Shown in pieces: positions 2,236 to 64,000 of a DNA stretch of 64,000 bases. Below the pieces are notes generated by a model that saw nothing but the letters and a program-made list of their open reading frames with translations, did not search any database and was not told the origin of the DNA. The stretch is from an uncultured Clostridia bacterium (lineage in GTDB: Bacteria; Bacillota; Clostridia; TANB77; CAG-508), in the NCBI GenBank assembly GCA_944391955.1, contig CALXVG010000001.1, positions 315,601 to 379,600 of the forward strand, in the 5' to 3' direction. Within the stretch, counting starts at the first letter, position 1, and each line of letters begins with the position of its first letter. Made by a program: the position numbers and the translations under genes.

Positions 2236-2516
2236 AATTTATAATTCCCCAGAATTACAATTTTAAAAATAAGTTGTTTGGTTTTATGGATTATTCAACT
2301 GCTGTTTTTAATGTTACTTGGATGTTATTTGTTTTCTTTTTACTAAATTTATTTACTTTTTCTATTAATCTTAAAATCTGTATTTTCATCACTTTATATT
2401 TCCCACTTTTTTTATTTAGTGTTTTTGGATTTCATAATGAAAATATTATTTATGTACTTTTTTATATGTTTAAATTTATTAAGAATAGAAGGGTGTATTT
2501 TTTCAATAAAGATTGA
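2232..2516 (+). CDS. Small membrane protein (TcpE-like?)
   Basis: 94 aa with two hydrophobic helices. A 4-nt overlap with the upstream ORF and an 'AAGGAGG' SD are present. Confidence 0.3.
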   Translation: MKFIIPQNYNFKNKLFGFMDYSTAVFNVTWMLFVFFLLNLFTFSINLKICIFITLYFPLFLFSVFGFHNENIIYVLFYMFKFIKNRRVYFFNKD

Positions 2517-2573
2517 CAAATTGCAGTTTTAAAGATAAAATTATGTATATCAATTTTAAAGGAGATTTTGTAA

Positions 2574-3686
2574 ATGTGGGGAGACATAGCAATTGCTTTT
2601 TTATTAGCATTTATAACAGCTTATGTTATTACACCTTATACAATTAGGTTTGCTAGAAAAGTGGGTGCAGTAGATATTCCAAAAGAAACTAGAAAGATAC
2701 ATAAAAAGCCTATGCCCAGACTTGGTGGACTAGCTATTATTGCAGGCTTTGCCGTTTCTGTTATTTATCTTTTGATTATGATGTCTATTGAAAATACTAT
2801 AGATTTAAATGATTCTAATCAATATTATATTAAATTATTAGGTTTGTTTGGAGGAGCAATAGTTTTAACTGCATTTTGTATTTTTGATGATATAAAAGGA
2901 ATTAATCCTTTTGTTAAATTGTTAGGTCAAACTTTAGCTGCCATTATTGTTTCTTCTGCTGGTATAAGAATAGATAGAATAATCTTTTCTTCATTCCTAA
3001 ATACTGTTATAACAGAAGAAATTTTTGCAATAATTATTACAGTTATTTGGATTGTTGGTATTACAAATGCAATTAATTTAATAGATGGCTTAGATGGCTT
3101 ATCTAGTGGAATTTCACTTATTTCATGTATATCATTATTAATGATTTTTGCATTAAATGGTTCACCTATGATTTCTATTATTTTAGTTACAGCTCTTGCA
3201 GGTGCTATACTTGGATTTTTACCATTTAATTTTACTCCTGCTAAAACATTTTTAGGTGATACTGGTTCAAATTTTCTTGGTTATACTTTGTCCATAATTG
3301 CTATTTTAGGAGTTGCTAAAACATATACGGCTATTGTTTTGATTGCACCTTTAATTGTTTTTGCTTTACCACTATTAGATACTGGTTTAGCTATTTTAAG
3401 AAGATTAGTTAAAACAAAATCTGTTAAAGGAATATTTAAGGCAGATAAAGAACATCTGCACCATAAGATAATGAAAAAAGGATATACCCAAAAGCAAGCT
3501 GTTCTAATTTTATATGCTTTTAGTGCTACTTTTGGTATGTTTGCAATAATTCTTTTAGAAAGTGGTTTTTGGAAATCTGTATCTTTTGCTTTAATGGTAT
3601 TTGCTATAGCTGCTATTGGTTATAAGGATTTCTTTAAAAAGGTAGATGATACTATTCCAGAAGAAACTGCAAAAAAAACTAAATAA
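2574..3686 (+). CDS. tagO: Undecaprenyl-phosphate GlcNAc-1-phosphate transferase (TagO/WecA, MraY-like GT4 family)
   Basis: 370-aa polytopic protein with MraY/WecA family motifs (PRLGGLAI, NAINLIDGLDGL, FLGDTGS). SD 'AAGGAG' is present. Confidence 0.9.
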   Translation: MWGDIAIAFLLAFITAYVITPYTIRFARKVGAVDIPKETRKIHKKPMPRLGGLAIIAGFAVSVIYLLIMMSIENTIDLNDSNQYYIKLLGLFGGAIVLTAFCIFDDIKGINPFVKLLGQTLAAIIVSSAGIRIDRIIFSSFLNTVITEEIFAIIITVIWIVGITNAINLIDGLDGLSSGISLISCISLLMIFALNGSPMISIILVTALAGAILGFLPFNFTPAKTFLGDTGSNFLGYTLSIIAILGVAKTYTAIVLIAPLIVFALPLLDTGLAILRRLVKTKSVKGIFKADKEHLHHKIMKKGYTQKQAVLILYAFSATFGMFAIILLESGFWKSVSFALMVFAIAAIGYKDFFKKVDDTIPEETAKKTK

Positions 3687-3720
3687 GAAAAAAATCTTCC
3701 TGAAAATCAGGAAGGTTTTT

Positions 3721-4152
3721 TTATTTTGTTTTCTCTTTTTTAAATACGAATACTTTACTTATTATGTAGTTTCCAACAATTACTAATATTTGTGCTATAA
3801 TTTTCATTATTTTGTCATTAAATTTTAATACTGTTACTCCTAAGTACATTACAAACATATCTAATAATAGTGTTGTTATTCTTGAGCCAACAAATTTTGT
3901 TGCTTCTTTTATTTTATTTGGATTTTTACTTTCAAATACAAACTTTCTATTAGTAAAATATGCAAACGTTACTCCTGCAATCCATGATAAAATATTTGCT
4001 ATTTGTAATTGTATTGGTATTTCAGGATTTAAAAACGTCAGTACACATATATAGTATACAATCAAGGATATAAATGTTGTTAATCCCCCAACTATTAGAT
4101 AATTTATTATTTCTTTATACTTCAAATATAGTTCTTTTATCTTATTTATCAT
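3721..4152 (-). CDS. GtrA family polysaccharide-synthesis membrane protein (GtcA-like flippase)
   Basis: 143 aa with 4 TM helices and the typical GtrA signature 'YLIVGGLTTFISLIVYYI...NRKFVF'. Confidence 0.8.
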   Translation of the reverse strand: MINKIKELYLKYKEIINYLIVGGLTTFISLIVYYICVLTFLNPEIPIQLQIANILSWIAGVTFAYFTNRKFVFESKNPNKIKEATKFVGSRITTLLLDMFVMYLGVTVLKFNDKIMKIIAQILVIVGNYIISKVFVFKKEKTK

Positions 4153-4174
4153 TTTGTTTATATCCCCTTTTTAG

Positions 4175-5113
4175 TTATTTTTCTATGTTTATTGTTTTAT
4201 CTATTATATATTGTGGTCTTTGTTTGCTTTCATCATATATTCTTCCAATATATTCTGAAAGTATCCAAACAGATAGTAGTTGTATACCTGCAAAAAATGT
4301 TATAGCTACCATCAAAGAGGTCCATCCTGGGGTTAGAGTTCCCCAATCAAATGCAAATGAAAGTAGTGCATATATTAAAATTATGAATGATATGAATATT
4401 GATAAAATACCTAATCCGCCTAATAGTTTTAGTGGCTTAGTTGAAAATCCTATTATTCCATCTGCTGCTAATTTTAACATTTTCTTTAGTGGATATTTTG
4501 TTTTTCCTGCAAAACGTTCTTTTCTTTCATATTTGAATGCATATTGTTTATATCCTACCCAACTAAATAGTCCTCTTAAAAATTTATTATGTTCTGGCAT
4601 TGAATTTATTGTGTCTACAACTTTTCTATCTACTAATCTAAAGTCTCCTGTGTTTTTAGGAATTTCTACATCTGATAGTGCATTTAATGTTTTATAAAAC
4701 ATACTTGCTGTAAATAATTTGAATTTTGATTCTCCTTCACGAGATTTTCTTTCACCATATATTACTTCATTTCCTTCTTCCCAAAGTTTTAGCATATCTG
4801 GTATTAATTCTGGTGGATCTTGAAGGTCTGCATCTATTATAAGTATTACGTCTCCTGTTACATATTGAAGTCCTGCTGTTACTGCTGCTTGATGTCCAAA
4901 GTTTCTTGAAAAAGAAAGTATTTTCACTTTTTGATTATTTTTTGCTATTTCTGATAATAATTCTAATGTTTTGTCTTTACTTCCATCATTTACAAAAATA
5001 ATTTCATAATCATATCCGTTTAAATTTGTTAATACTTTTTCTAATCTGTTATAACATTCATTTACTACTTCTTCCTCATAATACATAGGTATTACAATAG
5101 ATAATTTTTTCAT
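4175..5113 (-). CDS. GT2 polyprenyl-phosphate glycosyltransferase (GtrB/CsbB/ArnC-like)
   Basis: N-terminal 'LSIVIPMYYEEE...NDGSKD...DADLQDPPE' GT2 DxD region plus two C-terminal TM helices. Confidence 0.85.
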   Translation of the reverse strand: MKKLSIVIPMYYEEEVVNECYNRLEKVLTNLNGYDYEIIFVNDGSKDKTLELLSEIAKNNQKVKILSFSRNFGHQAAVTAGLQYVTGDVILIIDADLQDPPELIPDMLKLWEEGNEVIYGERKSREGESKFKLFTASMFYKTLNALSDVEIPKNTGDFRLVDRKVVDTINSMPEHNKFLRGLFSWVGYKQYAFKYERKERFAGKTKYPLKKMLKLAADGIIGFSTKPLKLLGGLGILSIFISFIILIYALLSFAFDWGTLTPGWTSLMVAITFFAGIQLLSVWILSEYIGRIYDESKQRPQYIIDKTINIEK

Positions 5114-5132
5114 AATTTCTTCCTCCTATTTA

Positions 5133-6032
5133 TTATTTTCTATTATATGGCACTGCATATTCTATTGCTTTGTTTATATTATTTATTTCTACCTCTTTTG
5201 TTTTTTCTATTCCTTCTCCATCTAAGGTCCATTTTACTTCTGTTTTAAAATGGATTTTGATATTTTTTACTTGTGAGTATATAAAATATGGTTTAATATA
5301 TTTTTTTCTTAACATTAGAATTAATATTTTGAAAAATTGTATTACATTTTTAGGTTTTCTTATTAATACCATCTCTAATTTACCATCATCTAACTTAAAA
5401 TCCACTTTTTTATACCATCTGAATCCTCCGATAGATTCTGAATTACTGATTCCACCATATAAAAATTTTCCACTTTCTTTTTTTCCATCATACTCTATTT
5501 CAGCTTCATAGGATTTCATTTTGAATAAATACTTTATTGCTACTCCAAAATATGCTAATTTACCAAAAATATTTTTTAATTTTTGTGGTGTTTCATAGGC
5601 TACTTCTGTAAATGCTCCAAATGCTGCAATATAATTAAAGTACCTTTTATTAAATATGCCAATATCTACTTTAACTGTTTTTAATTCTTTCTCTTTCTTT
5701 ATTGAAAATAACTGTCTTTTTGATATATTTAATGTTTTTGAGAAATCATTCATTGTACCTAATGGTACAAAAGTTAATTTTGTTTTTATGTTTAATTCAA
5801 TCATAATGCTAATAGTTTCATTTAAGGTTCCATCTCCACCACAGCACACTATTAAATCCGCTTCTTCCAAATATTTATGTGCTTTTTCTAGTATTGAAAC
5901 ATCTTTTTCTGTGTATATTGTATTTATTTTATAATTTAATTTTTCAAAATTATGTATTAGCTTATTTATTTTTTTTTCTACGTTTCCTTTTCCTGAATTT
6001 GGATTAATTATCAGTAATAAATTTTTTTTCAT
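5133..6032 (-). CDS. Diacylglycerol kinase family lipid kinase (DgkB/YegS-like)
   Basis: 'LLIINPNSGKG...CCGGDGTLNE...VPLGTMNDF' DAGK catalytic-domain motifs; 299 aa. Confidence 0.8.
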   Translation of the reverse strand: MKKNLLLIINPNSGKGNVEKKINKLIHNFEKLNYKINTIYTEKDVSILEKAHKYLEEADLIVCCGGDGTLNETISIMIELNIKTKLTFVPLGTMNDFSKTLNISKRQLFSIKKEKELKTVKVDIGIFNKRYFNYIAAFGAFTEVAYETPQKLKNIFGKLAYFGVAIKYLFKMKSYEAEIEYDGKKESGKFLYGGISNSESIGGFRWYKKVDFKLDDGKLEMVLIRKPKNVIQFFKILILMLRKKYIKPYFIYSQVKNIKIHFKTEVKWTLDGEGIEKTKEVEINNINKAIEYAVPYNRK

Positions 6033-6059
6033 TATTTCCTCTTTACTTTTATTTACTAC

Positions 6060-7628
6060 TTATCTTATATTATTTTTCATTTGTGTCTCCCTTATTAGCT
6101 CATAGTCTTCCCCTAATAGTGCTTCATTATAAAATGTTGATTTTTTTCTGATTTCATTATTTACATATTCATAACCCAATTCCTCAATAAGAGTTTGTTT
6201 TCCTGAGAATAGGTTTGTTCCTAATCCTAATCTTTCTCCTTCAATTTGAACTCCAATACTTGCAAGTATTGTTGGGAACATGTCTATTGTTGAGAATTGT
6301 CTATTAGTTGTATTTGTTCCTTCAATTGCAGAATTGATAATAACATTATATACTGTTCTTTCATAATCTTCTTCTATATGTGCTTTGTAAAATTCACTTT
6401 GCATTCCTAGATGGTCCCCAACAATTACTATTGTGGTATTATCATAAAAATCTTGTTCTTGTACCCATTTTACAAAATCACTTATTAGTTTTGATGAATA
6501 TGCATGTACATTTTCATATTGTGTGTCAAATTTATTTTCTGCGTATTGACTTAAATATCCATCTACAAAATGTGTATCCACTGTATGTATGATTATATTG
6601 AAAGGTTCTTCTTGATTTGATAAATCTGTTATTTCTTCTCTGGCCCAAGCAAATAATTTATCATCTTCAAATCCCCACCATACTTTGTCTTCTATTGTCA
6701 TTCTTCCTGTGTCTATGGCATAGTTTAAATCAAAAATTTTATAATTTCCATTTGTTCTAAAATATTGTGCTCTTCCACCATATTCTCCTTCAGAGCCCAT
6801 CATTATTTCTAAGTTATATCCTTGTTCTTCTAATATATCTCCTAATGTATATGCATTATCTAAAAATCTACCTGTGCCTGAGTAATTACCACTATCATTA
6901 TTTACAGTAGCAGGCGTTACTAATGGAATTCCTGCTGTGTGTGCTACTAGACCACCTGATGTGAATGCGGTTCCATAAAGTGTTCGTGCTCCCCCTAGCT
7001 TTTCTGTATTAGAAAAGTTTATATTTTCTAATTGCAATTGTTCTAGTTCTGGAATGATAGAGTATTCCCAACCTCCACCATTTTCTCTAGAACAAAGTGT
7101 TGTTTCTAAGCTTTCTACTGATATAATTATTAAATTTCTTTTTTGTTCTGGGAAAGTTATATTTACACTGTCTCCAGCCACATAATATTCTTCATATATT
7201 TTTGTTTCTTGCAAGTTATACATTATATATGCATCTACTTTAAATCCTTTTATTGTAGTTATTAATGCTATTATGAAAATAATTGTTACAAATAATACTT
7301 TATGGTTTGATATTGTTTTGATTGGATATATTTGTATTTTAGCTTTTTTATCTTTAAATTTTAGATTTAAATATACATTGTTTTTTAAATTTCCAATCAT
7401 AAGTACACATAATATTATAAATAAAATTATTACTGGTATAATATTAGCTGATATAATTGCTTTAGTTACATCTGGTGCTGTATTTTCTGCTCCATTCAAT
7501 AAATAATATAATATTTGGTCAAAATCTTGATCTGCATATTCTCTAGCATAATAAATAGTCCCCATTATCATTACTGAAGATAATAATAAAACTAATATTA
7601 TAATAATTGTACTAATCTTCTTTTTCAT
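6060..7628 (-). CDS. LTA synthase family protein (sulfatase / phosphoglycerol transferase, LtaS-like)
   Basis: N-terminal TM helices followed by an extracytoplasmic alkaline-phosphatase/sulfatase-like domain (…ISVESLE…, VGDHL). It sits next to the DAG kinase gene. Confidence 0.7.
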   Translation of the reverse strand: MKKKISTIIIILVLLLSSVMIMGTIYYAREYADQDFDQILYYLLNGAENTAPDVTKAIISANIIPVIILFIILCVLMIGNLKNNVYLNLKFKDKKAKIQIYPIKTISNHKVLFVTIIFIIALITTIKGFKVDAYIMYNLQETKIYEEYYVAGDSVNITFPEQKRNLIIISVESLETTLCSRENGGGWEYSIIPELEQLQLENINFSNTEKLGGARTLYGTAFTSGGLVAHTAGIPLVTPATVNNDSGNYSGTGRFLDNAYTLGDILEEQGYNLEIMMGSEGEYGGRAQYFRTNGNYKIFDLNYAIDTGRMTIEDKVWWGFEDDKLFAWAREEITDLSNQEEPFNIIIHTVDTHFVDGYLSQYAENKFDTQYENVHAYSSKLISDFVKWVQEQDFYDNTTIVIVGDHLGMQSEFYKAHIEEDYERTVYNVIINSAIEGTNTTNRQFSTIDMFPTILASIGVQIEGERLGLGTNLFSGKQTLIEELGYEYVNNEIRKKSTFYNEALLGEDYELIRETQMKNNIR

Positions 7629-7950
7629 TTTTTGGTTCCACCTTTACTTCAATATTTATGTTTGCTCTCACATATTTTTCTAGTACTGGATATATTATTG
7701 CAATTATTGTTGCTATAATCATATATTTAACTGTAAATTTATTTGTAAATATAAATTCTGGTTCTTTTAACATATATATTGCTATTAAGTACATAGATAG
7801 ATTAATAATAAATATTGCTTTCAAATATTTCTTTATTATTTTTTGTACTCTTATTTCTTCTCCTTCTAATTTTTCATATATTTTTAATGTTATTACTCCT
7901 GGTAATAATAAAGCCATCAATTGATTAATCAACATTTTTACACCGCCCAT
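7612..7950 (-). CDS. Small hypothetical membrane protein
   Basis: 112-aa ORF with 3 hydrophobic helices. Its 3' end overlaps the start of the LtaS-like gene. Confidence 0.3.
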   Translation of the reverse strand: MGGVKMLINQLMALLLPGVITLKIYEKLEGEEIRVQKIIKKYLKAIFIINLSMYLIAIYMLKEPEFIFTNKFTVKYMIIATIIAIIYPVLEKYVRANINIEVKVEPKNEKED

Positions 7951-7957
7951 ATTGCAT

Positions 7958-9067
7958 TTATTTTGAATATTTTTTTATTATTTCATTTACTATTCTTTGG
8001 CTTGCTTTACCATCTCCATATGGATTTGAAGCTTTGCTCATTTTTTCATATGTTTCTTTATTATCTAATAGCTCGGTTGTTAATTTATATATTGTGTCTT
8101 CATTTGTTCCAGCAAGTTTTAAAGTACCTGCTTCTATTCCTTCTGGTCTTTCTGTTGTATCTCTTAATACTAGAACCGGTTTTCCTAATGATGGTGCTTC
8201 CTCTTGTATTCCACCACTATCTGTAAGGATTATATGTGATTTATTTATAAAATTATGGAAATCTATTACTTCTAGAGGTTCAATTAATTTTATTCTATCA
8301 TCATTTCCTAAAATTTCATCTGCAACATCTTTAACTTTTGGATTTAGATGAACTGGATATACAACTCTTACATCTTCATGTTCATCTACTACCCTTTTTA
8401 TTGCTTTAAACATATGTCTCATTGGTTCTCCTAGGTTTTCTCTTCTATGTGCTGTTAGTAATATTAATCTGTTATTTCCTATCCAATCAAAAATAGGATG
8501 TTTATAATCTTTTTTTACTGTTGTTGCTAATGCATCAATCGCAGTATTTCCAGTAACATATATATTTTCTTCTTTTTTTCCTTCTTTTAATAAACTTTTT
8601 TTACTATTTGCTGTAGGAGCAAAATGCATGTCCGCTACTACTCCTACCATTTGTCTATTCATTTCTTCTGGGAATGGAGAATATTTATTCCATGTTCTTA
8701 GTCCTGCTTCAACATGTCCAACATCTACTTGATTATAAAATGCTGCAAGTGCTCCAGCAAATGTTGTTGTTGTATCTCCATGAACTAATATAATATTTGG
8801 TTTGACGGTTTTTATAACCCCTTCTAACCCTAATAATGCTTTGGTTGTAATATCACTTAATGTTTGTCCTTGACTCATGATGTTTAAATCATAATCTGGT
8901 TCTATATTAAATGCTTCCAATACTTGGTCTAACATTTGTCTATGTTGTGCTGTTACACAAACAATACACTCAATTTCATTTCTTGATTTTAATTCTTTTA
9001 CTAGTGGAGCCATTTTTATCGCTTCTGGCCTTGTACCAAAAATTGTCATTACTTTTATTTTTTCCAT
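7958..9067 (-). CDS. mnaA: UDP-N-acetylglucosamine 2-epimerase, non-hydrolysing (MnaA/WecB)
   Basis: 'IFGTRPEAIKMAPL...VHGDTTTT...HVEAGLRT' is a strong match to the WecB family. Confidence 0.9.
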   Translation of the reverse strand: MEKIKVMTIFGTRPEAIKMAPLVKELKSRNEIECIVCVTAQHRQMLDQVLEAFNIEPDYDLNIMSQGQTLSDITTKALLGLEGVIKTVKPNIILVHGDTTTTFAGALAAFYNQVDVGHVEAGLRTWNKYSPFPEEMNRQMVGVVADMHFAPTANSKKSLLKEGKKEENIYVTGNTAIDALATTVKKDYKHPIFDWIGNNRLILLTAHRRENLGEPMRHMFKAIKRVVDEHEDVRVVYPVHLNPKVKDVADEILGNDDRIKLIEPLEVIDFHNFINKSHIILTDSGGIQEEAPSLGKPVLVLRDTTERPEGIEAGTLKLAGTNEDTIYKLTTELLDNKETYEKMSKASNPYGDGKASQRIVNEIIKKYSK

Positions 9068-9188
9068 ATTATTCTCCTATTCATGTAAATTTCACAATAC
9101 TTATAATAACATATTTTGGGGTAAATAATCAAATTTTAGGGGATATTTTCATAAATAAATTTTATGTTTTATCTTAATATAATTGTAA

Positions 9189-9253: not shown

Positions 9254-10771
9254 ATGGAACAAACTAGATTAAATAAAATGATGAATACTATTTTATTCAT
9301 TTTTTTGATTATACAACCTATTTTTGACCTTAAATATTTTTATAACTCTATTTCTACTTTAATTAGAGTTATTATAATATTTGGTTTATTTTCATATTAT
9401 TTTTTAACAAGTAAGAACAAACGAAAATATTGGCTTGTACTTTATCCCTGTATTATTGGAGTATACTTTATATTTCATCATATCAATGCTTTAAATTTTT
9501 CTTCTTTAATACCTGGAAATTTTAATTATTCAATGTTAAAAGAAGGTTTATATTTTGTTAAAATGTTATCTCCTTTTTTGTTAATTTATTCATTATATAA
9601 AGCACAATTAAACAAAGAATCTATTATGAAGATTATAACTATTTTATGTTTAACTATTAGTTTAATAATTATTGTAACTAATTTACTTTGTATATCTTAT
9701 GGAAGTTATAGTGATGCTCCTATTAAAGCAAATTTCTTTGAATGGTTTAACCCAAATTCCGAGTATACATATAGAAATTTGGCTTCAAAAGGGTTATTCG
9801 AATTTGGTAATCAGATAGCTGCAATTTTAATTATGTTTTTACCTTTTGTAATTTGTAATGCCTTTAAAAGTAAACATTTTTTAAATTGGATTACTTTAAT
9901 TTTTAATGTCTGGTCTTTAATCTTGTTGTCTACCAGAGTTGCAGTAATTGGTACTATAATAGTTTTTATTTATACACTTTTTGTTTTTGTTTTTATTTCT
10001 CTACTTCAAAAAGAAAAGGTAATAATAAAGCATTATATACCACTTTGTATAGTATTAATATGTTATTTAGTATTACTACCAATAAATCCTATGTTTAATA
10101 GGCTTGAAACACGTTCTACTCTTATTGAAACATTTAATGAAGAACATTCTTCTGTTGTTTCAAATACGAATGAAGAACAAAATTCAGAAAACAATGTTGA
10201 TAATATAAATAGTGATTTGACTGAAACATCATCTGAAAAAACAGGTACAGGATATATGATAGAATTTATAGAATCTAATTATCAAGACAAAAAACTTCAT
10301 GAAGATTTCATTTTTGAATATTATCCATATAAATATGACCCTGAATTTTGGTATAATTTCTTGCAAGAAGATATTTCTTTAGTTTCAGATAATCGTTTTA
10401 TTGAGATTTCAATGATTAAAAGAGTTGTAGAAATTAATAATTCACCTCTTGATAAATGGTTTGGAATTACAAATACAAGATTACAAAATATATTTAATAT
10501 TGAAAAGGATTTTGTAGTTCAATATTATGCATTAGGTATAATTGGCTTAATTTTGGTATTTGCTCCATACTTTGTATTATTAGCAATATTTATATTCAAG
10601 AGCTTACACTCGAAATTAAAAAGCTTAACTATATTAAATTCTCTATCGGGAATAACAATAATATTTGCATTTGGAATTTCATATATGTCTGGCAATTTGC
10701 TAAATTCATTAAGTTTTACAATTTATTTTACATTATGTTTCTATTTATTATTAGACAAGAATGTAGATTGA
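9254..10771 (+). CDS. O-antigen ligase / Wzy_C-family polytopic membrane protein (polymer ligase or O-oligosaccharyltransferase candidate)
   Basis: 505 aa with at least 10 TM helices and a large hydrophilic loop between helices, the WaaL/WsaB-like architecture. It is the only plus-strand gene inside the glycan island. Confidence 0.55.
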   Translation: MEQTRLNKMMNTILFIFLIIQPIFDLKYFYNSISTLIRVIIIFGLFSYYFLTSKNKRKYWLVLYPCIIGVYFIFHHINALNFSSLIPGNFNYSMLKEGLYFVKMLSPFLLIYSLYKAQLNKESIMKIITILCLTISLIIIVTNLLCISYGSYSDAPIKANFFEWFNPNSEYTYRNLASKGLFEFGNQIAAILIMFLPFVICNAFKSKHFLNWITLIFNVWSLILLSTRVAVIGTIIVFIYTLFVFVFISLLQKEKVIIKHYIPLCIVLICYLVLLPINPMFNRLETRSTLIETFNEEHSSVVSNTNEEQNSENNVDNINSDLTETSSEKTGTGYMIEFIESNYQDKKLHEDFIFEYYPYKYDPEFWYNFLQEDISLVSDNRFIEISMIKRVVEINNSPLDKWFGITNTRLQNIFNIEKDFVVQYYALGIIGLILVFAPYFVLLAIFIFKSLHSKLKSLTILNSLSGITIIFAFGISYMSGNLLNSLSFTIYFTLCFYLLLDKNVD

Positions 10772-42486: not shown

Positions 42487-42906
42487 TTATTCATCTATTA
42501 TATTTATTGGAATATCTAATTCATTTGCAATACTTTCTATTGATGTTTTTTTGGTTTCTTTTTTCCCTTCGTTTTTTTCTAGTATTCTGATTTGCATATT
42601 TGAACCTTGTTCCATTGATACTATTTTTTCAATAAAAGCTTTGTTTTCATGTTCTTCTATTACCTTTTTGGCAAAGTCTGTAACTTTTTTAGGAAATTCT
42701 ATTCCAACAACCATGTCATTTACTAATACACCCTTTGTACTTAGTAAATTTGCATATATAGTCATTTTGCCTGATTGTTTTATTTTGTCTAAGACATTTT
42801 GCCAATAAGGCACATATTTTCCAGTTGATTGTATTTTATCATCTAGTTCTACATCTTGATTTTCAAAATTTACACTTTGTTTTTTGACTTCAGACTTTCC
42901 GCTCTT
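42487..42906 (-). CDS. dnaX: DNA polymerase III tau subunit, C-terminal (domain IV-V) fragment; separated from the N-terminal part by in-frame stops
   Basis: It is in the same reading frame as the 42925-44070 ORF. TAA (42925-42927) and TAG (42907-42909) interrupt the frame. The C-terminal region is tau-like. Confidence 0.6.
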   Translation of the reverse strand, partial: KSGKSEVKKQSVNFENQDVELDDKIQSTGKYVPYWQNVLDKIKQSGKMTIYANLLSTKGVLVNDMVVGIEFPKKVTDFAKKVIEEHENKAFIEKIVSMEQGSNMQIRILEKNEGKKETKKTSIESIANELDIPINIIDE

Positions 42907-42924
42907 CTACCTTTGTCTTCTGTC

Positions 42925-44070
42925 TTACGACATCTTCCCTCTGAGCTCCGGCCTCCGCCTTCTGACCTCCGCCATCCGACCTCTGACCTCCGTCTTTAGA
43001 CATCCGCTAATTATACCTGTTTGAAAAATTATATTTTTCTGTGTTGACATTTTCATATTATTAGCTAATTCTGATAATTCATATATTAGTCTAAGCAATT
43101 CTTCTTTTGATGTTTTCTCTGATAATTGCTTAATAAAATCCATTTCTTCTTTTGTATATAATTCTAAATGAGATGTAACTTTATATACTAATATATCTTT
43201 TACATATTTTATTACTTCCCAAAGGAAATTATCTAAGTCTTTTCCTTGGTTAATCACTATATCCATTGTTTTTATTGCATTTTCAGCATTTTTTTCTATA
43301 ATACATTGCACTAATTCTCTTATGTATGTTAATTTAGGTAATCCTACTAGTTCTCTTATTACATCTTCTGTTATTTCTCTATTTGCATCTTGGCTACATC
43401 TTTCTAAAATACTTATTCCATCTCTTAAAGCACCTTCTGCTAAAATTGCAATCATTTTTAATGCTTCATCTGTTATTTGTATTTTGTCTTCTTTACATAT
43501 AATATTTAGTCTTTTTATTATATCTTCTACTGATATTCTTTTAAAATCAAATCTTTGACAACGTGAAAGTATGGTTGCTGGTAATTTTTGTGGTTCAGTT
43601 GTTGCTAATATAAATTTTACATGTTCTGGTGGCTCTTCTAATGTTTTTAATAATGCATTGAAGGCTCCTGTTGATAACATATGAACCTCATCTATAATAT
43701 ATACTCTATATTTTGCAATTGTTGGTAAAAAGTTTACTTCATCTCTTATTGCTCTCACATCTTCTACACTATTGTTAGATGCTGCATCCATTTCTACAAC
43801 ATCTGTTAAAGAACCATCTAAAATTCCTTTGCAAATTTCACACTCATTACATGGTTCTCCATCTTCATGTGGATGTAAGCAGTTTATAGCTCTTGCCATT
43901 ATTTTTGCTGCAGTTGTTTTTCCTGTTCCTCTTCCACCACTAAATAAATATGCATGTCCTATTCTATCTGCTAATATTTGATTTTTTAATGTTTTTGTAA
44001 TATGTTCTTGCCCAACCATTTCATTAAAAGAAATTGGTCTAAATTTCCTATATAATGCTGTGTAGCCCAT
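42925..44070 (-). CDS. dnaX: DNA polymerase III subunit gamma/tau, N-terminal domains I-III (gamma-length product)
   Basis: 'LFSGGRGTGKTT' Walker A, a Zn-module 'CNECEIC' and SRC/sensor motifs. The ORF ends in a GC-rich repeat segment with an R-rich aberrant tail. Confidence 0.85.
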   Translation of the reverse strand: MGYTALYRKFRPISFNEMVGQEHITKTLKNQILADRIGHAYLFSGGRGTGKTTAAKIMARAINCLHPHEDGEPCNECEICKGILDGSLTDVVEMDAASNNSVEDVRAIRDEVNFLPTIAKYRVYIIDEVHMLSTGAFNALLKTLEEPPEHVKFILATTEPQKLPATILSRCQRFDFKRISVEDIIKRLNIICKEDKIQITDEALKMIAILAEGALRDGISILERCSQDANREITEDVIRELVGLPKLTYIRELVQCIIEKNAENAIKTMDIVINQGKDLDNFLWEVIKYVKDILVYKVTSHLELYTKEEMDFIKQLSEKTSKEELLRLIYELSELANNMKMSTQKNIIFQTGIISGCLKTEVRGRMAEVRRRRPELRGKMS

Positions 44071-44099: not shown

Positions 44100-44218
44100 A
44101 AATTAACCCCTTTATGGAAAGTAATTCACATAAATATTACTATTTATCGCTGCTTCCTTCCAGACCTGACGAGATTCATAGCTCTTTATTGAATTACTCT
44201 CCATAAAGAGGTTAATTC
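44100..44218 (-). ncRNA. ffs: Signal recognition particle RNA (4.5S/scRNA-type, ffs)
   Basis: Minus-strand sequence contains the universal domain-IV motif GUCAGGUCUGGAAGGAAGCAGC. It is enclosed by a ~26-bp terminal helix (44102-44127 pairs with 44191-44216). It is located directly upstream of dnaX, as in Bacillus/Clostridium. Confidence 0.75.
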
Positions 44219-47125: not shown

Positions 47126-47202
47126 TGGTGTCCTTGGGCGGATTCGAACCGCCGACTTCTTCCTTAGGAGGGAAGCACTCTATCCAGCTGAGTTACAAAG
47201 AC
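47126..47202 (-). tRNA. tRNA-Arg (anticodon CCU)
   Basis: 77-nt cloverleaf GUCUUUGUAACUCAGCUGGAUAGAGUGCUUCCCUCCUAAGGAAG...GGUUCGAAUCCGCCCAAGGACACCA. The anticodon loop CUCCUAA gives anticodon CCU. Confidence 0.9.
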
Positions 47203-47297: not shown

Positions 47298-47374
<77 letters not shown>

Positions 47375-61364: not shown

Positions 61365-61712
61365 TTAAACTACACAATTTAGTTCTTCTTTGATGTGTTC
61401 TAGTATTTCAGCAATTTGTTCATCTGTAAACTTTGTTTGAATTTTTGTAAGTTCTGATAATATGCTTGCTATTTTTTCTTCTTGTCTTTGTGTCTTTTTC
61501 ATAATTCCTAACTTCTCTTCAAATTCGAAAAGTTTATTCTCCCCTTTCTTCATAATGTCTCTAACCGCTTGTCTTGTAATACCTTCATTTTCTGCTATTT
61601 CTGAAAGAGACAAATCTAAGTTATAATAGTTATCTAAAATATTTAATTGTTTTTCAGTTAAAAGTTTGCCATAAATCTGGCATAATAAACTAATTTCTAC
61701 TTTTCTATCCAT
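61365..61712 (-). CDS. ylxM: YlxM/p13-like putative DNA-binding protein (UPF0122)
   Basis: 115 aa with a sigma-70 region-4-like HTH. It is the first gene of the ffh operon. Confidence 0.8.
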   Translation of the reverse strand: MDRKVEISLLCQIYGKLLTEKQLNILDNYYNLDLSLSEIAENEGITRQAVRDIMKKGENKLFEFEEKLGIMKKTQRQEEKIASILSELTKIQTKFTDEQIAEILEHIKEELNCVV

Positions 61713-61805
61713 AACTATTACATCCTTTTGTTTTTTGTAATGCTAATATACTTTACACTATTTTTTTACTTTTGTCAAGCCTTTTTCAGAAAATTTTTAT
61801 AAAAA

Positions 61806-61834
61806 TTGCAATTTTATGTTAATTATGCTAAAAT
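61806..61834 (+). promoter_or_regulatory. SigmaA-like promoter (TTGCAA-17-TAAAAT) upstream of the GC-rich ORF
   Basis: TTGCAA at 61806-61811, a 17-nt spacer and TAAAAT at 61829-61834, about 70 nt upstream of ATG 61903. Confidence 0.4.
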
Positions 61835-61902
61835 TATATTAGTTGTTAAGCTTTTAGCTGAACCAACAATTTATTACCCTATATGGGAAGGAGGTTCTCA
61901 TT

Positions 61903-62196
61903 ATGAGAATCATGAAAATCGAGCAAACTGTATGGCCTCTGGTTGTACAGTGCAAGCACCACAACACACCGGTTACCTTCGAGGTCAATATGCCCAGCGA
62001 TATGCTGGTGCATCTCGACTATGATGTATCCGAAGTGCCTGGTGCCAATTGGAGGCATGCCGCTGTTGTGGGACGGCACATCTGGACTCACTGCCCCATT
62101 TGTGGGAGAGTCCATGAACTCCCGTTTGATGCGATTCCTGAAATGGTTCGTCGGCTGATTCCGTTGGATCAGTCCAACAAGCCAGTCTTAGGTTGA
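61903..62196 (+). CDS. Hypothetical 97-aa zinc-ribbon-like protein encoded in a compositionally foreign (~55% GC) cassette
   Basis: Strong SD GGGAAGGAGG 7 nt upstream. Codon usage is unlike the rest of the window. It has 'QCKHH' and 'HCPICG' potential metal ligands, and a dedicated terminator follows. Confidence 0.5.
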   Translation: MRIMKIEQTVWPLVVQCKHHNTPVTFEVNMPSDMLVHLDYDVSEVPGANWRHAAVVGRHIWTHCPICGRVHELPFDAIPEMVRRLIPLDQSNKPVLG

Positions 62197-62216
62197 CTCG
62201 CACGATTTTCAAGCAG

Positions 62217-62250
62217 AAAACGGTGTAACCGAATGGTTGCACCGTTTTCA
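62217..62250 (+). terminator. Rho-independent terminator of the GC-rich ORF
   Basis: AAAACGGTGTAACC-GAAT-GGTTGCACCGTTTT hairpin followed by TTTTCAATT. Confidence 0.7.
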
Positions 62251-62267
62251 ATTAATTCTATATTTTG

Positions 62268-62936
62268 CTATAACTGTAGCATAATCTTTATTGAATCTCT
62301 TATCGCCCTATAATTTGTTGATTTGTTTTTATTTATATAAACACTTTGTATATCAACTTCTGATATTTTTATATTCATCTTTATAGCATATAGTATTACA
62401 TTTGTTTCATATTCAAATCTTTCCCCTTTAATATCTGTAAGTTGTTCTAAATGGCAAAAAGGAATTGCTCTTAAACCTGTTTGGGTGTCTTTTATTTTTA
62501 CTTTTGTTTTTAGGTTTAATATATATCTAAATATTTTATTTCCTATTTTGCTTTTTAAAGGAATATTTTTTGCTTTAAAATTTCTACTTCCCAAAATAAT
62601 AGCGTTTTTTTCTAAGTAAAATTTGTTATATACCTTGTTAATATCTTCTATACGATGTTGTCCGTCTGCATCTACTGTAATAATTCCAATAATGTTTTTG
62701 TAACTATCATAGCAATATTCTATTCCTGTTTTTATTGCAATTCCTTTGCCTTTATTTGATTTATGAGTTATAATCTTTACTTTTTCTGCTAGCTCCTCAA
62801 AAATTTTAGTGTTTTCACTCCCATCATTTATTATTACTATTTTTGTATATTGACTTTTCATTAAATCTTCTATTAGATTATATAATTCCTTACTTGGATT
62901 ATATGCTGGAATAATTATTGCAACATCATCTTTCAT
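62268..62936 (-). CDS. Glycosyltransferase family 2 (soluble, DPM1/GtrB-like catalytic domain)
   Basis: 'VAIIIPAYNPSKEL...IINDGSEN...TVDADGQH' GT2 motifs; 222 aa. Confidence 0.75.
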   Translation of the reverse strand: MKDDVAIIIPAYNPSKELYNLIEDLMKSQYTKIVIINDGSENTKIFEELAEKVKIITHKSNKGKGIAIKTGIEYCYDSYKNIIGIITVDADGQHRIEDINKVYNKFYLEKNAIILGSRNFKAKNIPLKSKIGNKIFRYILNLKTKVKIKDTQTGLRAIPFCHLEQLTDIKGERFEYETNVILYAIKMNIKISEVDIQSVYINKNKSTNYRAIRDSIKIMLQL

Positions 62937-62939
62937 TTT

Positions 62940-63992
62940 CTAATCTCCACATTCTTCGATATGTTTTATTAATCTTGATTCTTTATCTATCTTTAATAGC
63001 ACACCATTTGTTATTGTTGGTATGTCTTCATATATCATTATTTCTTTTAATGCCGTTTGTGCTAGTGGCGAAAATATATTCTGATAATCCTCTATTAGTT
63101 TTTCGTCTGAATTTATGACATAAACATATGTATAATTTTCTTCAATTAATTTATCTATAAATTCTTCTTCTGAAATTATTATTTTATAAAAATTATCTTT
63201 TTTTTCTGTTCCTATATTCCACTCATATAATAAATTTGTTTTTATTGGTAAAATATAATATCTTGTTTTCATAAATTCATATCCGTTATCTTCCTGTTGA
63301 TCAATTAAATACACTTTTTCACTTTCTTTTATACTGTTTTTTATATAATTAGCATTTTCAATTGTAATTATTTCATTTGGGTTTTCCAAGATTTTATGTG
63401 CATATTTTGGATTTAACATCAGTTGATTTAATCCTTTTTGCATGATTATTAACATTAGTGCTATTACTAATATTCTTCTCCATTCTGTTTTTTCAAATAT
63501 TAAATATATTAAATTAAGTAGCATTGCTAATAAATATGTTGATATATATCTTGTAAATCCTAGTAGTTCATTCCCTTGTCCTTCTACAAAAACAAACATA
63601 AATAATATTAAAACTGTTAATATATATATGATTATTCCAATATTTATGCTTATTAAATTTGATATTTTTTTTATTTTTTGTTTACTGATTATTATATAAA
63701 ACATAAATAACAAATTTAATATTATAAAAATATTAGTTGGTGTATTATATTTATTTTTTCTAATAATTTTTTTATTATCTAAATTATATAGAAAATCATT
63801 TACTACATCTCTATTTCTTTCATCTGCCTCTTCATCTTGTTTAATAGCATTTATTAGTTCTTCTATATCTATATTTTGAACATAGTTTTTGTCATGCCTA
63901 TCATCTACTTGTTTGCCATTTGCTAAACAATAAATTTTCCAAGTTGCATACACAATTATAATAGTTGTTAACAATATTAACACTATATACAT
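62940..63992 (-). CDS. Hypothetical polytopic membrane protein (operonic with the GT2 gene)
   Basis: 350 aa. There is one N-terminal TM, several TM helices in the middle and a hydrophilic C-terminal domain. A 3-nt gap separates it from the downstream GT2 gene. Confidence 0.4.
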   Translation of the reverse strand: MYIVLILLTTIIIVYATWKIYCLANGKQVDDRHDKNYVQNIDIEELINAIKQDEEADERNRDVVNDFLYNLDNKKIIRKNKYNTPTNIFIILNLLFMFYIIISKQKIKKISNLISINIGIIIYILTVLILFMFVFVEGQGNELLGFTRYISTYLLAMLLNLIYLIFEKTEWRRILVIALMLIIMQKGLNQLMLNPKYAHKILENPNEIITIENANYIKNSIKESEKVYLIDQQEDNGYEFMKTRYYILPIKTNLLYEWNIGTEKKDNFYKIIISEEEFIDKLIEENYTYVYVINSDEKLIEDYQNIFSPLAQTALKEIMIYEDIPTITNGVLLKIDKESRLIKHIEECGD

Positions 63993-64000
63993 TTTTTTAA

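Follow-up and report, generated by a model that had tools for sequence, protein, structure and literature searches.

A GC-rich family of putative zinc-ribbon genes resident at one chromosomal site in AT-rich uncultured Clostridia

Small C(P)xCG zinc-finger micro-proteins have been described in Halobacterium (Brz) and, as a larger set, in Haloferax, and some micro-proteins of this type are regulators that act by binding a partner (PMC2253796, PMC11241148). Here, we analyse a gene whose 97-amino-acid (aa) product appears, from its pattern of metal ligands, to be nearest in kind to these zinc-finger or zinc-ribbon micro-proteins. The gene lies at positions 61903–62196 (+ strand) of a 64,000-nt stretch of contig CALXVG010000001.1 from an uncultured Clostridia bacterium (assembly GCA_944391955.1; hereafter the window, to which positions refer unless a locus is named), within a GC-rich block, 61840–62260, that a sequence-only reading had taken for a compositionally foreign, possibly recently acquired cassette. 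Comparison with homologous loci instead places it in a previously undescribed, fast-evolving family limited to a small clade of uncultured Clostridia of ~27–30% GC. On balance, we favour an explanation that joins an undescribed, clade-restricted zinc-ribbon gene, units resident at one site, a GC content that is maintained and a working model of the messenger RNA (mRNA).

Like the C(P)xCG micro-proteins, the members of this family are shorter than 100 aa, soluble by prediction and encoded by stand-alone genes, and they carry two Cys knuckles, the second of which is CPxCG. They differ in that a beta-sheet insert between the knuckles and the motifs WP and PSDM are peculiar to this family, that the host is bacterial and AT-rich, and that matches to the corresponding hidden Markov models stay below threshold, both for Zn_ribbon_4 (PF13717; 9 of 17 members, best E 1.8e-4) and for the NCBIfam model MJ0042_CXXC (TIGR02098; best E 0.0016). 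Lar (PF14354, TIGR03655) is likewise a small zinc-ribbon protein, and the present family shares fast evolution and variable copy number with it; however, its matches to Lar reach only E 0.003–0.0085, the gene is not in a prophage, and phage searches gave no homologues of it. The best PDB sequence match of the family profile (E 1.3e-4 over ~35 residues) is 2k5c, the uncharacterised zinc-ribbon protein PF0385 of Pyrococcus furiosus, which at 95 aa is similar in size to the window protein.

The arrangement of the gene also invites comparison. Leaders that stabilize Firmicute messages at the 5' end, such as those of aprE, ermC and cryIIIA (STAB-SD), combine 5' stem-loops with a strong Shine–Dalgarno (SD) sequence. 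By analogy, the leader found here may be of this kind, with its 5'-proximal hairpin, A/U-rich spacer and perfect GGAGG, but it differs in that paralogues of only ~30% identity retain the exact leader sequence together with a second hairpin. Because both the leader sequence and the promoter spacer are conserved in this way, a specific trans-acting factor is suggested. Integron arrays resemble the locus in that small units stand in tandem and in one orientation at a fixed site, in numbers that vary between strains, but the units described here have their own promoter and terminator and encode paralogues rather than unrelated genes; the integron hallmarks, attC sites and an integrase, were not found among the recorded neighbours at the examined loci. 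Rare-codon gating is known from bldA and TTA codons in GC-rich Streptomyces, and genes written in host-rare codons could be read as a parallel (31% of codons at <3 per 1,000), although the composition is the mirror image, many codons rather than one would be involved and no dedicated tRNA was identified. In the literature searched, we found no published description of the protein family, nor one of the present arrangement, in which autonomous units with GC-rich bodies stand in tandem and share a structured leader within a genome of 27% GC.

The block contains a genuine protein-coding gene, as judged from its codon-position pattern, the family alignment and an AlphaFold2 model. The open reading frame (ORF) begins with ATG at 61903 and ends with TGA at 62194–62196. 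A second allele (P0003), found in other metagenomes (loci L001–L006), differs at 73 of 291 ORF positions, divided 17/11/45 between the three codon positions, with a nonsynonymous divergence (dN) of 0.148, a synonymous divergence (dS) of 1.69 and hence a dN/dS of ~0.09; the 97-aa frame is the sole stop-free frame in both alleles. Where a low-GC genome has a GC-rich island between genes, a structured RNA is often the reason (PMC6429828), and the ORF region does fold better than its shuffles (z about −3.1 to −3.3), as would be expected of a structured non-coding RNA with an accidental ORF. Against such an RNA stand the dominance of third-position changes and the single open frame, as well as the start, stop, SD sequence and Cys ligands, which are kept among members of 20–35% identity. 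In addition, fold z-scores are inconsistent across members, and Rfam gave nothing in the block, either at gathering thresholds in a search of the whole window or at E up to 1. We regard a non-coding RNA as extremely improbable.

The window protein carries the motifs QCKHH and HCPICG, and in the alignment of 17 family members C17, C64, P65 and C67 never vary. Most members have a Cys as second ligand (in the form CxxC, CxC or Cx4-5C), a place taken in the window protein by His19/His20. Members share an N-terminal MRIxKIxG..WP, a first knuckle C17-x(1-5)-C/H, the PSDM motif, the beta-rich insert, a second knuckle C64-P-x-C67-G and a conserved IP near the C-terminus, and the alignment is without any conserved stretch of 7–10 columns; identity between paralogues is 16–39% of residues, and 44% in one pair. 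The AlphaFold2 model, built from 11 sequences, is all-beta with a predicted local distance difference test (pLDDT) score of 85.4, and structure searches returned no informative structural neighbour. Family proteins are predicted to be soluble and near-neutral to mildly acidic. Together, sequence and model describe a cytoplasmic protein with one predicted zinc-ribbon site, formed by C17/H19-20 and C64-P-x-C67. The sequence-only reading had noted zinc-ribbon-like Cys/His pairs and no obvious family, which agrees with the invariance of C17, C64 and C67 and with library matches that are all sub-threshold.

Searching 1.84 billion cluster representatives with the family profile returned 13 matches at E up to 1e-3, and from 5.8 billion sequences 13 clusters were retrieved, all from Logan, ENA or JGI assemblies and none of them carrying a name or a Pfam domain; among these 1.8–5.8 billion proteins, no homologue came from outside the AT-rich clade. 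In the species representatives of GTDB, the protein pattern had no match and the leader pattern found one true locus, L024; further leader-pattern matches (L021–L023, L025, L026) were rejected as chance. Searches with blastn and tblastn against phages and plasmids were without a match, and a leader scan of viral contigs gave 0 matches. The sole Pfam match of the window protein is DUF6274 (PF19790; residues 53–80, E 0.002), at 19 bits against a gathering cut-off of 25, and 2 of the 17 members match this domain, below the cut-off. Lar_restr_allev (PF14354) is matched below threshold by 6 of 17 (best E 0.003), TIGR03655 at E 0.0085 and a PADLOC candidate model by 4 of 17 (E 0.003). Searches of PHROGs, NCBIfam and PADLOC yielded sub-threshold, generic zinc-knuckle matches, none significant, and no member reached the threshold of a curated zinc-ribbon profile.

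These weak matches are what might be expected of a Lar-like anti-restriction, anti-defence or otherwise defence-linked zinc-ribbon protein engaged in an arms race, as are the variable copy number, a dN 12–37 times that of the neighbouring gene ylxM, the coexistence of divergent alleles in one species and a site that adjoins a variable island. Yet every match lies below the family threshold and is typical of any CxxC knuckle, searches of phages, plasmids and viral contigs did not turn up the family, no defence genes are among the recorded neighbours at the examined loci, and a dN/dS of 0.09–0.41 indicates purifying, not positive, selection. A Lar-like arms-race function is in our judgement improbable; the broader suggestion of the sequence-only reading, an anti-defence factor or a regulator, is conceivable.

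Public gene calls at the locus are wrong. A code-4 model was applied to a low-GC contig, so that two calls (P0001, P0002) translate the TGA stop as Trp and give 136- and 126-aa products, and in a 248-kb scaffold of the same strain (L020, 9150–9445) the gene is not called at all. Genetic code 4 was rejected for the host, as code 11 leaves the native genes intact and the family C-termini align at the stop.

The composition of the block departs from that of its surroundings. The window has a GC content of 26.8% (for 294-nt windows, mean 26.8% and standard deviation 4.3%), and maximal-segment scoring of the window returned 61920–62244 (no strand; 325 nt, 52.3% GC) as the best-scoring GC-rich segment, a core ~6 standard deviations above the window mean, whereas the peak elsewhere among 294-nt windows is 40.1%. 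This segment coincides with 61921–62216, the stretch that is hyper-divergent between the two alleles of one species. The whole of 61840–62260 has 47.0% GC and the ORF 51.0%, so that the 52–55% given by the sequence-only reading fits the core and is slightly high for the longer interval. The GC content at third codon positions (GC3) of the ORF is 0.57, compared with 0.11–0.19 in ylxM, ffh, GT2, rpsP and rplS; first and second positions (GC1, GC2) are raised as well, and host-rare codons (<3 per 1,000 in native genes) make up 31% of the ORF against 3.2% of native genes, which confirms that codon usage is non-native. The compositional boundary lies inside the unit, since GC rises ~20 nt into the ORF, after an AT-rich promoter and leader.

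The gene stands between two neighbours on the opposite strand. On one side is ylxM (UPF0122, assigned from Pfam matches; 61365–61712, − strand), divergent from the cassette and first gene of the ylxM-ffh-rpsP-KH-rimM-trmD-rplS operon; on the other is a convergent family 2 glycosyltransferase gene (GT2; 62268–62936, − strand) whose end is at 62268. The identical ORF occurs between ylxM and GT2 in at least 10 contigs that were assembled independently, with different assemblers and from different samples (L007–L016), and again in the 248-kb scaffold L020; samples in which the cassette is present include ERZ28614052 and SRR32182651. A laboratory or synthetic insertion, which the sequence-only reading had entertained, or an assembly chimera might account for a HindIII site just 5' of the SD sequence and for the neat minimal-unit layout, but it would have to explain the same sequence in all of these contigs, from various samples and pipelines, and no plasmid or vector match was found. 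The site itself, AAGCTT at 61848–61853, is part of the stem of a covarying leader hairpin and reads GAGGCT in the other allele, and is therefore not a cloning scar. The chance of a synthetic origin or a chimera is practically nil.

Related species carry units at the same site: three in tandem in L027, at least two each in L041, L039, L043 and L024, and one each in L033, L038, L040 and L044. These units always lie 3' of a divergent ylxM and are usually followed by a convergent ABC-F gene (of an ABC-F/CorA pair). A unit was present in every related locus recovered, and position and synteny are both preserved among species with ylxM genes that differ by a dS of 0.25–1.2. Each unit has its own sigma-A promoter with an extended −10, a leader, GGAGG, a GC-rich ORF and a GC-rich terminator. 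A second unit occurs in the strain of the window (L020, 1930–2234, − strand in that locus), ~6.8 kb further on and past the window end; its promoter and leader are those of the first unit, its ORF (79 aa, CSC...CPVCG) has a GC3 of 0.52, and its terminator is shared with the convergent ABC-F gene. The sequence-only reading had held that the same cassette at this locus in all close relatives, with an ordinary annotated function, would count against it: relatives do carry the cassette there, but no such function is annotated. Taken together, the loci show, at the level of sequence, a family long resident at one chromosomal site as 1–3 tandem autonomous units.

Recent horizontal acquisition from a GC-rich donor, with the ORF retaining the composition of the donor, would match the 52% against 27% GC, the host-rare codons, the raised GC1 and GC2 and the weak, sub-threshold similarity to the actinobacterial DUF6274 (19 bits vs 25). 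It is difficult to reconcile with the fixed syntenic site, at which presence is not patchy, with promoters and leaders that are AT-rich, conserved and of native type, and with a compositional edge that falls ~20 nt into the ORF rather than at the edge of a mobile element. Moreover, no homologue in a GC-rich context was seen among 1.84e9 to 5.8e9 proteins, GC3 has been retained through saturated dS, and near the unit there is no integrase or tRNA gene and the flanking repeats are short and at chance level. The proposal that the cassette is foreign and recently acquired consequently has to be given up as very improbable, and recent transfer, synthetic origin and a non-coding RNA are all effectively excluded. 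We consider the identity and evolutionary status of the block, taken jointly, highly likely to be as described here.

The expression signals of the unit make it complete and self-contained, with the promoter, HindIII site, consensus SD sequence and terminator located where the sequence-only reading had placed them. A scan and the sequence itself point to a sigma-A-type promoter at 61806–61834 (+ strand), with −35 TTGCAA (61806–61811), a 17-nt spacer and −10 TAAAAT (61829–61834); the −10 is extended, TGcTAAAAT at 61826–61834, with the TG at 61826–61827. The transcript is predicted to run from about 61841 to about 62249. The spacer, TTTTATGTTAATT, is kept across paralogous cassettes, including those of other species, and a second copy of the cassette promoter or leader was not found within the window. 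On the ylxM side, there is a promoter-like TTGACA-17-TAAAGT at 61778–61750.

The leader contains two hairpins. Hairpin 1 (61842–61867, + strand) was defined by folding and covariation and has two tiers, an outer GUUG/CAAC and an inner AGCU/AGCU, with a UUU loop. Structure prediction folds it in 11 of 12 leaders; in the alignment, 90.8% of cells are paired and both partners have changed in 3 of the 6 pairs, whereas partners slid along the alignment were only 24–51% paired and 0 of 500 shuffles were as good. The rest of the leader (61868–61902, + strand) comprises the A/U-rich AAUUUAUUA, which across units takes the form of a AAAUUUAUU stretch between hairpins 1 and 2, then hairpin 2 and GGAGG (61890–61894, + strand) with an 8-nt spacer to the ATG at 61903. 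Hairpin 2, CCC (61877–61879) paired with GGG (61885–61887) as CCC-UUAAAU-GGG, is invariant in 14 leaders, and in one further cassette it reads CUC/GAG, a compensatory change on both sides. As the covariation rests on 14–16 sequences that are all kin by descent, its support is moderate. A covariance model of the leader, R1, scores 67.9 bits at 61836–61905, and its matches in 184 kb of sequence are family units only, except for one leader before an unrelated ORF in L037; a weak match at L033 359–412 was rejected as an ordinary AT-rich leader. The leader (~60 nt) and promoter are near-identical across units even though the paralogous proteins share so few residues, and since the leaders cluster by orthology and not by array, this conservation reflects constraint rather than homogenization. 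With moderate support, the two-hairpin leader appears to be a new candidate cis-regulatory RNA motif.

The exceptional leader in L037 (6400–6610, − strand) is the same module, placed before an unrelated and very acidic ORF of 49 aa (pI, isoelectric point, 4.05) that is convergent with rplS, has a GC3 of 0.43 and ends in ...IPFANDPDPYSDDDFDDDD, a tail that may resemble the acidic C-terminal tip of SSB.

Downstream of the window gene, an intrinsic terminator (62216–62249, + strand) is formed by a 15-pair stem with one G-U pair, a GAAU loop and a T run, its inverted repeat (I3) being 93% complementary. It has an A-tract upstream and a T-tract downstream and is, therefore, probably bidirectional, serving the convergent GT2 as well. 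Between the 5' end of the ORF (61913–61924) and the 3' untranslated region (62200–62211) there is a 12-nt complementarity (92%), whose core AAAAUCG/CGAUUUU is retained in the other allele; this could allow the two ends of the mRNA to pair.

The two alleles were compared by sliding identity. It is 100% over 330 nt of ylxM and 93–97% in the promoter and leader, falls to 53–87% across 61921–62216 and returns to 93% in the terminator, with sharp boundaries at 61921 and 62216, and unit 2 has a mosaic divergent patch. Bounded and highly divergent patches of this kind inside near-identical DNA indicate that ORFs are exchanged by recombination. One large imported block covering both units and the island between them was rejected, as unit 2 has only a local divergent patch.

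Most family members have a GC3 of 0.5–0.84, against 0.11–0.27 in native genes. The two alleles of one species have a GC3 of 0.53–0.57 at a dS of 1.69, beside ylxM genes that are 100% identical. Between L027 and L041, where ylxM has a dS of 0.25, two orthologous units have diverged by dS 0.53 and 1.0 with GC3 held at 0.74–0.84. More generally, cassette dS is 2–4 times that of the adjacent ylxM between species (1.69 vs 0 within species), and cassette dN is 12–37 times that of ylxM at a dN/dS of 0.09–0.41, indicating purifying selection. Because high GC3 persists through saturating synonymous divergence, it is probably maintained and not inherited. In three subfamilies, the third-position weak-to-strong rate per site is about equal to or above the strong-to-weak rate, implying an equilibrium GC3 of 0.6–0.7, vs ~0.12–0.15 from the native bias, under which a 6–7-fold excess of strong-to-weak changes per site is expected. 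The unrelated 49-aa ORF behind the same leader in L037 is also GC-enriched and was counted in favour of maintenance. We infer that a persistent force sustains the high GC at synonymous sites, which would then not be the leftover of a transfer.

Several observations weigh against the favoured explanation. In raw polarized counts, strong-to-weak changes outnumber weak-to-strong ones in 6 of 7 triplets, and decay may be under way in some lineages; the polarization is by parsimony, with few sites and distant outgroups. With a GC3 of 0.23, one member is near native, and a second stands at 0.37, so that function does not strictly require high GC. Finally, excess mRNA structure is inconsistent across members (z +1.7 to −4.3), for which reason selected mRNA structure was rejected as a general explanation.

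The first two of these points would also be met by an old transfer in the course of amelioration, in which a very-high-GC ancestral gene has been decaying unevenly from GC3 0.84 to 0.23, with a graded GC3 across members. However, given that paralogues share only 16–39% of residues (one pair 44%), their synonymous sites must have turned over many times, and several members still have a GC3 of 0.74–0.84 despite this turnover. Orthologue pairs are equally high after a dS of 0.5–1.0, the per-site rates imply an equilibrium well above the 0.12–0.15 to which such a gene should decay, and no donor lineage is visible in the 1.84e9 cluster representatives. An old, ameliorating transfer seems decidedly unlikely to us.

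Alternatively, the high GC could be a functionless by-product, caused at a hot spot of recombination by gene conversion that favours GC or by mutation that is locally biased, in a gene that is strongly transcribed and probably head-on to replication. The latter orientation is probable for the + strand cassette because of strand bias and GC skew: 32 of 41 ORFs of at least 200 aa in the window are on the − strand, and the + strand has a GC skew of −0.139. The bounded, hyper-divergent allelic patches point to frequent recombination within the ORFs, the excess of cassette over ylxM dS is in keeping with a hot spot, the unit lies on the minority strand, and the site also accepts an insertion sequence (IS) element and a 6.8-kb island. 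GC3 is, moreover, higher in the larger tandem arrays (0.58–0.84 in L027, L041, L039, L043 and L024) than at single-unit loci (0.23–0.52). The two-unit L001 haplotype, at 0.47–0.53, is nevertheless no higher than the best single-unit loci, the paralogues are too diverged for mutual conversion, and the leader and promoter between the recombining parts remain AT-rich. Conversion bias in bacteria is not known to move GC3 by more than a few percent, which falls short of the required shift from ~0.15 to 0.8. We therefore consider a functionless by-product unlikely.

The sequence-only reading had the cassette inserted between the ffh operon and GT2. It is the GT2 side that was inserted: GT2 is the first gene of a strain-specific island of ~6.8 kb (window 62268–64000 and L020 ~2300–9100), made up of GT2 and three large ORFs of 17–35% GC that have no Pfam match. 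In the L001 haplotype, the two units are adjacent without GT2, and the island is absent from related species too, so that the island, and not the cassette, is the insertion. An IS element (DDE_Tnp_1 transposase, 477 aa) sits directly after the single cassette in L033 (10499–11932) and L034 (7300–8733), and the gap between ylxM and ABC-F therefore takes up insertions repeatedly. After cassette 1 of L027 (~9690–9870), there is a low-complexity run of poly-C, poly-G and poly-T, probably an artefact of assembly, as L030 matches this locus otherwise but lacks the run.

Other short GC-rich spikes in the window are explained by a small signal recognition particle (SRP) RNA (44110–44205, − strand; 65.3 bits), by two tRNA genes, tRNA-Arg(CCT) (47126–47202, − strand) and tRNA-Met (47299–47374, + strand), and by a repeat in the dnaX region. 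There (42487–44070, − strand), a dnaX-like ORF of 381 aa terminates within a repeat of 58% GC (42899–43007) that contains two in-frame stops, TAA and TAG; the same frame resumes as a 108-aa ORF, and an alternative frame is open across the repeat. The gene may be split, its translation may involve programmed frameshifting or readthrough, or the sequence may contain an error.

Returning to the maintained-GC explanation that we favour, its working model links transcription, message stability, rare codons and a partner. Transcription of the units would be strong, the mRNA would owe a longer life to its 5' hairpin and to a stable, GC-rich body, and host-rare codons would slow its translation. The product would be a small zinc-ribbon binding module that docks on a partner, either a protein or a nucleic acid. 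The rapid diversification of the units, through duplication and the swapping of alleles, suggests a partner that is itself strain-variable. As a whole, the model is tentative, and we would sooner expect some part of it to fail than all of it to hold.

A more specific proposal, which we hold to be rather doubtful, is that the leader defines a set of small genes purposely written in GC-rich, host-rare codons, their composition being held by selection. Their messages might behave unlike native AT-rich ones, for instance by surviving RNases directed at A/U, or they might be translated only when the tRNA pool or the state of the ribosomes has changed, as in stress, sporulation or germination, or phage infection. 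In that case, the promoter spacer and the two-hairpin leader may be a shared control element, of which the L037 ORF may be a second client.

The family is restricted to a few uncultured Clostridia, and the immediate reach of the finding is accordingly limited. It brings to light a family of small proteins that had no annotation, together with a conserved RNA motif in their leaders, and it illustrates that the rule by which a GC island means foreign DNA can mislead. If the maintenance of GC is true, these units would be a compact natural test case, in genomes whose other genes have a GC3 of 0.1–0.25, for the long-debated question of whether the composition of a gene is set by selection or by local biased repair or recombination, as opposed to genome-wide bias or transfer.

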